From Planctomycetota bacterium (GTDB taxonomy: Bacteria > Planctomycetota > UBA1135 > UBA2386): a DNA stretch of 64,000 nt. The notes beneath the pieces are model-generated. The model was not told where the DNA came from. It ran no database searches and worked only from the letters and a program-made list of their open reading frames with translations. Shown here piece by piece: positions 5,980 to 7,069 of this stretch (positions are counted from its first letter, which is position 1; every line of letters begins with the position of its first letter). The position numbers were made by a program, and so were the translations under genes. Where the stretch lies: contig JBKAGP010000001.1 in NCBI GenBank assembly GCA_046290465.1, positions 3,424,001 through 3,488,000 of the forward strand, read 5' to 3'.

Positions 5980-6276
5980 CTATCGAGTCCGGGCAGGCGA
6001 GCGCTTGTTCACAGCCCTACACCATGCAAGGAAGGCTCCATCCGGATTCTCAACCACGACTCCGTTCTCCGCCGTCTTTCGCCGCCAGTCCGCCTCGAGC
6101 CCGTACACGTCGAGTCCTGGCGCGAGCCTCCTCGCTTTCTCATAGGTTTCCGTATCTAAGCGGAGGTACGTCGGGCTTTCTTGGCGCTCGGCGGGGGCGC
6201 AGGACCGTTCGGCAACGCCTCCGCCCCTACCGCCTGTGCGCTTCGCCTTCAGGTGGACTTCGCCATTTCGAGTCTC
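5980..6276 (-). pseudogene. repA: Out-of-frame C-terminal part of RepA, downstream of the microsatellite
   Basis: ETRNGEVHL...ETYEKARRLAPGLDVYGLEADWR...NPDGAFLAWC resembles the C-terminal domain of RPA-family initiators and begins exactly where the repeat ends. Confidence 0.75.
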
Positions 6277-7069
6277 GAGAGAGAGAGAGAGAGAGAGAGA
6301 GAGAGAGAGAGAGCTCGTAGTCGAGCAGAGTCTTCCGTGAAACAAGATTTCGAACACTTCGAGCGAAGTAGTTGAACTCCTGACTTGTTCCAGAGCGCTC
6401 GTAGAGCGTGCTCATGCTCCAGGCCCACTCGCTCTTACCGGCGCCCTTTCTGATGAGTCGATATAGAAAGCGCTCAATTCCTCCAGTGAGCAGGAAGTAG
6501 TCCCTGTGAATCGAAAGAACCCGACTGCTATCGCAAATCGCTGAGTAGAGCCACTCTGGCAGAACCACGATGACGTGAGTGACAACACCTCGCTCGTCTC
6601 GCTCCATCTCGGCGTACTCAATCCAGCTGAACTTCACGGTCTTCTTGCCGCTCCCGGGCCGAATCGTGGTGAACACGTTCGTGTTGCTGAGCCGCTCGAT
6701 GGCTTGCTCAAGTCTCCTGTACTGCCCACCACCCACTCCCCTTCGGGTGTCCTTGAGGAATGCGCGCCGGTGAAAGCGCACCTTGCGCGAAGGCGTCTCG
6801 CCCCGGTCAAGCGCTTGGCGAATCTGTGAGAGCAGCCACAGGATGAGGTCCCAGTCCCATATTGTGGCAATGCCATACGGCTCACCGCCTGTGACCACGA
6901 CCTCGACGTCTCCCTTCTCGAATCGAATCGGCTCGAACCTTGGGCTCTTGTCGAGGCTTACGAACGGCACTTCCATCGCCTCTCTCGCGTCCCGAGTCGA
7001 TATGTCGGTAAAGAGGGCCGAGAAGAGCTCAAGCTGAGCGTCGCCTCTCGGTGGTTTTCGAAGCCCCAT
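6227..7069 (-). CDS. repA: Replication initiator protein A (RPA family), truncated at 280 aa by a frameshift in the (TC)n tract
   Basis: QLELF...MEVPFVSL, YGIATIWDWDLIL, LPEWLY, VLSIHRDYFLLTGGIERFLYRLIRK; ATG 7069 with AGGGGA RBS. Confidence 0.88.
   Translation of the reverse strand: MGLRKPPRGDAQLELFSALFTDISTRDAREAMEVPFVSLDKSPRFEPIRFEKGDVEVVVTGGEPYGIATIWDWDLILWLLSQIRQALDRGETPSRKVRFHRRAFLKDTRRGVGGGQYRRLEQAIERLSNTNVFTTIRPGSGKKTVKFSWIEYAEMERDERGVVTHVIVVLPEWLYSAICDSSRVLSIHRDYFLLTGGIERFLYRLIRKGAGKSEWAWSMSTLYERSGTSQEFNYFARSVRNLVSRKTLLDYELSLSLSLSLSLSRDSKWRSPPEGEAHRR
6277..6313 (+). repeat. (GA)18G dinucleotide microsatellite inside repA
   Basis: Counted directly: GA x18 at 6277-6312 plus G. Confidence 0.95.

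Follow-up and report, generated by a model that had tools for sequence, protein, structure and literature searches.

A long TC repeat splits the replication initiator gene of an integrated planctomycete element: a candidate accidental and revertible knock-out

The replication initiator gene repA of an integrated planctomycete element is divided between two reading frames by a perfect run of 18 TC units. Our analysis of this element, seen in a window of 64,000 nucleotides (the whole stretch of contig JBKAGP010000001.1 that was analysed), favours an accidental, probably revertible knock-out of repA in a stranded element, to which we give a probability of roughly 0.55. An integrase-parA-repA-iteron element with defence cargo sits beside a tRNA-Pro gene. 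In the assembly no distal att site was found for it and parA is internally deleted, so that precise excision and partition would have been lost. A first slip within the codons for E-L-S-L may then have broken the repA frame, which would be harmless or even useful for a stranded origin, and the tract would subsequently have run away to 18 units, because TC/GA tracts readily reach such lengths in the host family. As a pure 18-unit tract is predicted to keep slipping, rare cells with 16 or 19 units would make full-length RepA with 8-10 extra wing residues. The length and purity of such a tract are by themselves expected to give a high switching rate in the absence of selection. Through occasional reversion the tract would have the effect of a switch, though most likely not one that evolved as such.

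Repeat number sets the reading frame of repA

The repA gene comprises the following features:
6227..7069, minus strand: repA 5′ frame encoding 280 aa, of which residues 26-253 match Pfam RPA (PF10134; E 6.6e-66); the predicted two-winged-helix core resembles RepE54 and RctB domains 2-3
6277..6313, minus strand: C(TC)18 tract beginning at repA codon 253; probable ancestral length four units
5980..6276, minus strand: repA 3′ part, out of frame, 98 codons without stops; second wing strand, linker and conserved three-helix C-terminal domain

The tract, C(TC)18 in the repA coding strand and (GA)18G on the plus strand at 6277-6313, is perfect over its 37 nt. Translation from the ATG at 7069 ends after 280 aa at a stop at 6227, while a second frame continues from the end of the tract to a stop at 5980-5982 with no internal stops in its 98 codons. 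Recomputed coordinates and frames agree with the initial annotation as to the tract, the early stop and the displaced C-terminal domain, which is matched in 65 of the best 120 homologues. That annotation had the distal stop abutting the fifth iteron; the position is close, and the stop in fact overlaps the end of this iteron copy (5961-5982). Varying the unit number in silico yields proteins of 353 aa (n=4), 361 aa (n=16), 272 aa (n=17), 280 aa (n=18) and 363 aa (n=19). This bears out the proposal that the frame is restored when n mod 3 = 1, which always gives a RepA of 351-365 aa. A frame set by repeat number at one locus corresponds to single-locus switching as described in section 6 of PMC11868660. 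As it is the only one of three criteria in the part of that source consulted that the locus displays, we do not class the repA locus as phase variation.

C(TC)18 is the longest dinucleotide run of the 6.59-Mb genome, and the runner-up for any motif has 8 units, so the absence of other long dinucleotide runs first reported for the window extends genome-wide. AG/CT runs number 435 at 6 nt and one each at 11, 14 and 15 nt, followed by the single run of 37 nt; the tract is thus longer than expected by chance when set against the next-longest AG/CT run of 15 nt. The two 7-unit GA/TC runs of the genome (G000:C1:798781 and 1464006) each lie just upstream of an ATG that opens a signal-peptide-like protein start. 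A perfect 8-mer in seven copies (G000:C1:3365820) is found around 58 kb to the left of the window.

Truncation separates the RPA domain from a conserved C-terminal domain

The whole RPA profile (positions 1-228 of 228) precedes the tract and scores 222.6 bits against a Pfam cut-off of 27, so that the 280-aa form, first thought to keep most of the RPA domain, retains all of it within residues 26-253. In the AlphaFold2 model of this form (mean pLDDT 82) the LS run makes a wing hairpin in which strands 251-255 and 260-265 complete the wing, and pLDDT falls to 65 over residues 261-270. Foldseek matches the model to RctB domains 2-3 (5tbf; E 4e-10) and also to RepE54 (1rep), with which it shares the predicted two-winged-helix core. 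RepA differs from both by its extra three-helix C-terminal domain, for which comparison with PDB sequences gave no convincing solved relative (best E 0.038). In the model of a full-length homologue this forms a separate domain beyond a flexible linker.

For the displaced C-terminal domain the score is 97 bits (leave-one-out median 102; 12 of 30 homologues are lower), and for the N-terminal part 380 bits (404; 3 of 30 lower). The absence of damage in both halves of repA and in the origin suggests that function was lost recently or that selection sometimes favours the ON state. The C-terminal domain is retained by the nearest relatives, which are 60-70% identical. A sister group of around 309 aa naturally lacks it, and approximately 48 of the best 120 homologues are forms of 276-340 aa, most of them without the domain.

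Among 25 longer proteins scanned that match the C-terminal domain, its partners were RPA (18), RepA_C (5), Rep3 (1) and DUF1376 (1), an association that suggests a shared replication role. PHROG 23447 also matches the domain, and 20 of its 25 members are annotated 'replication initiation protein'. Structure-atlas matches comprise unnamed clusters at 0.94-0.95 and named ones at 0.82 or below, the latter serving as leads only. Given that comparison with Pfam, the PDB, PHROG and the atlas leaves the domain unnamed, a role in replisome loading can only be a guess. Its loss probably matters for RepA function, judging from these sequence comparisons. It is likely that the tract silences or weakens the origin by cutting the domain off RepA; the sister group of around 309 aa keeps this conclusion at likely. 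The region encoding the three helices (window 5983-6183, minus strand) has 854 representatives and no Pfam match. Hits to the domain of 85-135 aa were considered as a recurrent split gene and are read as fragments, having varied starts and no repeat.

Homologues point to an ancestral tract of four units

Of 72 homologues examined, 54 could be scored across the tract site, and in 49 of them the spacing is the 12 residues given by n=4. The longest spacing among the 54 is 17, short of the 20 expected for n=16 and the 22 for n=19; full-length closest homologues are mostly 346-368 aa. As this spacing fits n=4, the ancestral repA tract likely held four units in the E-L-S-L codons, from which seed it would have grown by a net 14 units. 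A GA/TC run longer than 9 nt was found in 0 of 37 distinct related repA loci (49 before duplicate removal; 36 cover the junction). A conserved, length-variable tract was therefore not seen among these loci, which are 30-70% identical relatives rather than strains carrying the same element, and the 269 proteins collected contain no LS or RE repeat. Searches for the same element elsewhere gave 0 matches in metagenome contigs to its exact flanks with a gap of 6-36 nt, and none in a single-protein scan of species genomes.

RepA was not found in any of 14 same-genus genomes, and repA is matched in 9 of 90 other host-family genomes. The 10 loci in these nine genomes comprise four that are full-length and intact, two 5′-truncated, one cut by a contig end, two of a short type and one distant. 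The full-length copies occur in four same-family genomes, in two of them within contigs longer than 2 Mb. Where relatives are broken the lesions are ordinary ones: 5′ truncations (L102, L106), frameshifts (L028, L030) and a stop (L039). One same-family element (L124-L126, G476:C2:2329000-2377000) is integrated at tRNA-Val with an intact repA and has the copies of a 45-bp tRNA duplication at its two ends, 46 kb from each other; its repA-parA module is oriented opposite to the integrase compared with the window. Another related element carries 48 bp of the tRNA-Pro 3′ end.

The element retains an origin and shows signs of decay

Around repA the element is laid out as follows:
1..697, minus strand: PDC-S06-like ATPase ORF, 5′ part; match limited to profile positions 318-848 of 851 (5′-truncated), the ORF continuing left of the window
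2122..4356, minus strand: IetS subtilase, cargo; PADLOC E 4e-40
4360..5478, minus strand: IetA AAA ATPase, cargo; PADLOC E 2e-82
5732..5740, plus strand: DnaA box, perfect TTATCCACA consensus
5828..5915: four 22-bp iterons with 22-bp spacing
5926..5934, plus strand: DnaA box, perfect TTATCCACA consensus
5961..5982: fifth iteron copy, overlapping the stop codon of full-length repA
7111..7851, plus strand: divergent parA-like ATPase (AAA_31/CbiA); 26-codon in-frame deletion near 7713
7988..8401, plus strand: 137-aa ORF after parA, no Pfam match; putative partition adaptor
8478..9653, minus strand: tyrosine integrase (PF00589), 391 aa, open frame
9762..9838, minus strand: tRNA-Pro(GGG), putative integration site; 3′-end duplicate not found in the genome

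From right to left the element thus runs through tRNA-Pro(GGG), integrase, 137-aa ORF, parA, repA, origin, IetA and IetS, beyond which lie the 5′-truncated PDC-S06-like gene, a DUF4145 gene and, left of the window, a second recombinase. Its GC content is around 0.60 against 0.70 for the genome. With iterons and DnaA boxes adjacent to the initiator gene the region has the arrangement of an RPA-family iteron replicon, and the five iterons and two perfect boxes confirm the earlier impression of an intact origin. The parA gene is 26 codons short compared with all seven relatives (7/7) and may no longer encode an intact partition ATPase. The 137-aa ORF is flanked by a 17-nt inverted repeat (7906-7922 and 8410-8426).

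A tyrosine integrase beside a tRNA gene is the arrangement of an excisable element. No att direct repeat was found: a duplicate of tRNA-Pro(GGG) did not turn up in the genome, and exact matches within 40 kb reach at most 11 nt, still compatible with a very short att core. A match of the 11-of-14 type 25 kb upstream was set aside as it sits in coding sequence. A sigma-70 scan returned 0 promoters, and an Rfam search over 20 kb returned only the tRNA.

In a same-genus genome (L054, G011:C539) an integrase 32% identical to that of the element lies next to tRNA-Pro(GGG), which makes this site a likely integration hotspot. Another integrase of the present genome directly adjoins tRNA-Pro(TGG) (G000:C1:202658-203982). 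The second recombinase of the island is a XerC/D-like tyrosine recombinase (G000:C1:3420023-3421324; L019:5023-6321) with homologues in L005 and L124. An apparently non-coding stretch of around 380 nt (window 726-1108) has no Rfam match, is 74% like a sequence beside a related element (L014:3251-3614) and in part 80% like G000:C1:2967233-2967414.

TC/GA tracts are common in the host family

(GA)12 occurs in 27 of 60 other host-family genomes against 2 of 60 for (CA)12, and in 22 of 300 genomes sampled across the phylum; none of the three same-genus genomes in the 60-genome sample has it. Among the matches listed, 39 tracts were examined in relatives (19 loci and 20 further places, with 126 matches outside this set). 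Judged by eye, 22 of these 39 sit at the beginning of an ORF whose following residues resemble a signal peptide. For 20 of the 22 an ATG is no more than 60 nt away, and 5 of these 20 are in frame with their nearest ATG, a count in which the start choice was mechanical and to which short-read miscounts could add noise. Fourteen of the tracts among the matches listed belong to two protein families, one with 9 loci and one with 5, for whose scanned members Pfam gave nothing above cut-off. In the larger family 10 of 15 loci have a 5′ repeat, with TC, CA, four-base or five-base units, and the copy in the genome with the repA tract is without a repeat. Together these observations make a family-wide phase variation of predicted secreted-protein genes likely. 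The pattern resembles that of contingency loci and renders the repA tract credible as a slipping site; as repeats of this type also occur near the starts of such host-family genes, repA reversion is plausible.

A codon-usage test for mid-gene tracts in relatives proved insensitive, as repA itself scored negative. Mismatch-repair loss was considered as a cause of the tract and rejected, mutS and mutL being present with open frames. The TC/GA, CA, four-base and five-base repeats of the host family, a few codons past the start of large orphan proteins, are those of loci L056-L075, L078-L097 and L108-L123.

Alternative explanations

The case for an accident draws on signs of decay, namely the missing att duplicate, the parA deletion and the truncated PDC-S06-like gene, and on the ordinary lesions that break relatives. 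It has to accommodate the undamaged repA halves and origin, the open integrase frame, a net gain of 14 units that is large for drift in a genome with no other AG/CT run above 15 nt, open mutS and mutL, and the absence of (GA)12 from the three same-genus genomes. One alternative is a selected phase-variable replication switch, in which OFF alleles keep the island quiet and the origin fires in the rare cells whose allele is ON, with 16 or 19 units. In its favour, the tract is long and pure, C-terminal domain, iterons and DnaA boxes are intact, IetAS directly adjoins the origin, 10 of 15 loci of one host secreted-protein family have repeats in their 5′ codons, which are of several motifs, and only 5 of the 20 family tracts scored among the matches listed are in frame with the nearest ATG. 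The initial annotation saw a toggle between a silent integrated and an excised replicating state, which is not sustained: no second att copy was found in the genome, parA is deleted relative to all seven relatives, the tract appears in none of the 37 related loci and four same-family genomes retain full-length repA. As an att partner was not found, the origin would most likely fire in place by run-off replication, a process described for excision-defective elements in the part of PMC2697382 consulted, and would raise the dose of nearby defence genes. A selected switch nevertheless appears unlikely to us, since this is a single case, the family tracts lie near start codons rather than at codon 253, the long in-frame alleles would carry an insertion longer than in any homologue, and parA is damaged. 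Its more specific version, a microsatellite-gated gene-dosage switch with RepA turned on in a few cells and neighbouring anti-phage genes, IetAS among them, amplified there in place, is more doubtful still. Another view is that the 280-aa RepA retains iteron binding and some or all of its activity, the tract tuning the initiator or making an iteron-binding repressor. The full RPA profile before the tract, the completed wing of the model, its resemblance to RctB domains 2-3 and RepE54 and the many 276-340 aa homologues would allow this. It is nonetheless improbable given that the tract replaces the native second strand and, with it, an alanine that is nearly invariant, that model confidence falls to 65 at residues 261-270, and that the closest relatives retain the C-terminal domain.

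Two further alternatives concern the tract length itself. The sole public run found to contain the stretch (X1) is flagged as a possible source of the assembly, and is therefore not independent of it, and its repeat letters are masked; run X2 covers only 50 nt. No RNA data set containing the stretch was listed, which does not bear on expression in one direction or the other. In Logan contigs of X1 both flanks are identical to the assembly, and the contigs break at the tract, extending 37 and 34 letters into the masked stretch. The tract would accordingly have at least 14 units in this run, with the exact count beyond around 14, and likewise the frame in most cells, left unfixed by the contigs. 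This gives some room to an assembly that is wrong by one or two units, the common allele being in frame and repA intact with a short LS insertion, as would befit the undecayed C-terminal domain. We consider such an error very improbable, because the flanks match the contigs letter for letter and an 8-10 residue insertion at the site is absent from all 54 homologues. That the tract is purely an artefact of assembly or polishing where the cells have four units, for which the flagged source and the masked letters could be cited, is hardly credible: a 9-nt tract is not expected to break a 31-mer graph, both contigs break there with 37 and 34 letters inside that are not flagged as unlike, and similar tracts occur in 27 of 60 independent host-family assemblies.

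Relation to known systems

CT-repeat switching and integrated RPA replicons are already known from the sources consulted in part, and the repeat within an initiator appears new. In Helicobacter pylori oipA, according to the portion of PMC10564699 seen, CT-dinucleotide phase variation is accompanied by allele variation across many sequences, and the same motif within coding sequence sets the frame by its unit number. The oipA tract lies in the 5′ region of a surface-protein gene, a layout closely mirrored by the signal-peptide tracts of the host family; the present tract differs in lying mid-gene in a replication initiator, and is known from one genome and one allele. Planctomycete RPA (PF10134) replicons have been described, with chromosomal RPA genes read as integrated plasmids (bioRxiv 10.1101/2024.01.22.576637), and, as in our element, their RPA initiator adjoins iterons and a type I parA. 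The portion of that work seen shows neither a repeat tract nor a frameshift, and the present element differs further in its tRNA-side integrase, compact defence cargo and damaged parA. In Salmonella and Bartonella, the origins of excision-defective prophages amplify their flanks by escape or run-off replication (PMC2697382, in the part consulted). If the stranded foreign origin here fired, it would likewise amplify the chromosome around it. The prophage origins come from phages, their amplification has been demonstrated and the text seen describes no repeat switch for them, whereas the origin here is of the plasmid iteron type. Within the literature searched (titles and abstract openings, with subscription literature mostly outside), no simple-sequence repeat gating a plasmid-type replication initiator was found, nor any planctomycete phase variation of Helicobacter type, including in the portions of PMC3711429 and PMC4060949 seen.

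Even as an accident, the repA tract would show how an integrated origin can be domesticated in a revertible manner, and it offers a clean test of the role of the C-terminal initiator domain. A possibly weightier by-product is the Helicobacter-type repeat pattern in an uncultured environmental Planctomycetota family, carried by orphan signal-peptide-like genes that are mostly out of frame. Within one genome of this family (G476:C2) the near-identical 5′ ends of two paralogues, L117 and L122, have 8 and 12 TC units.
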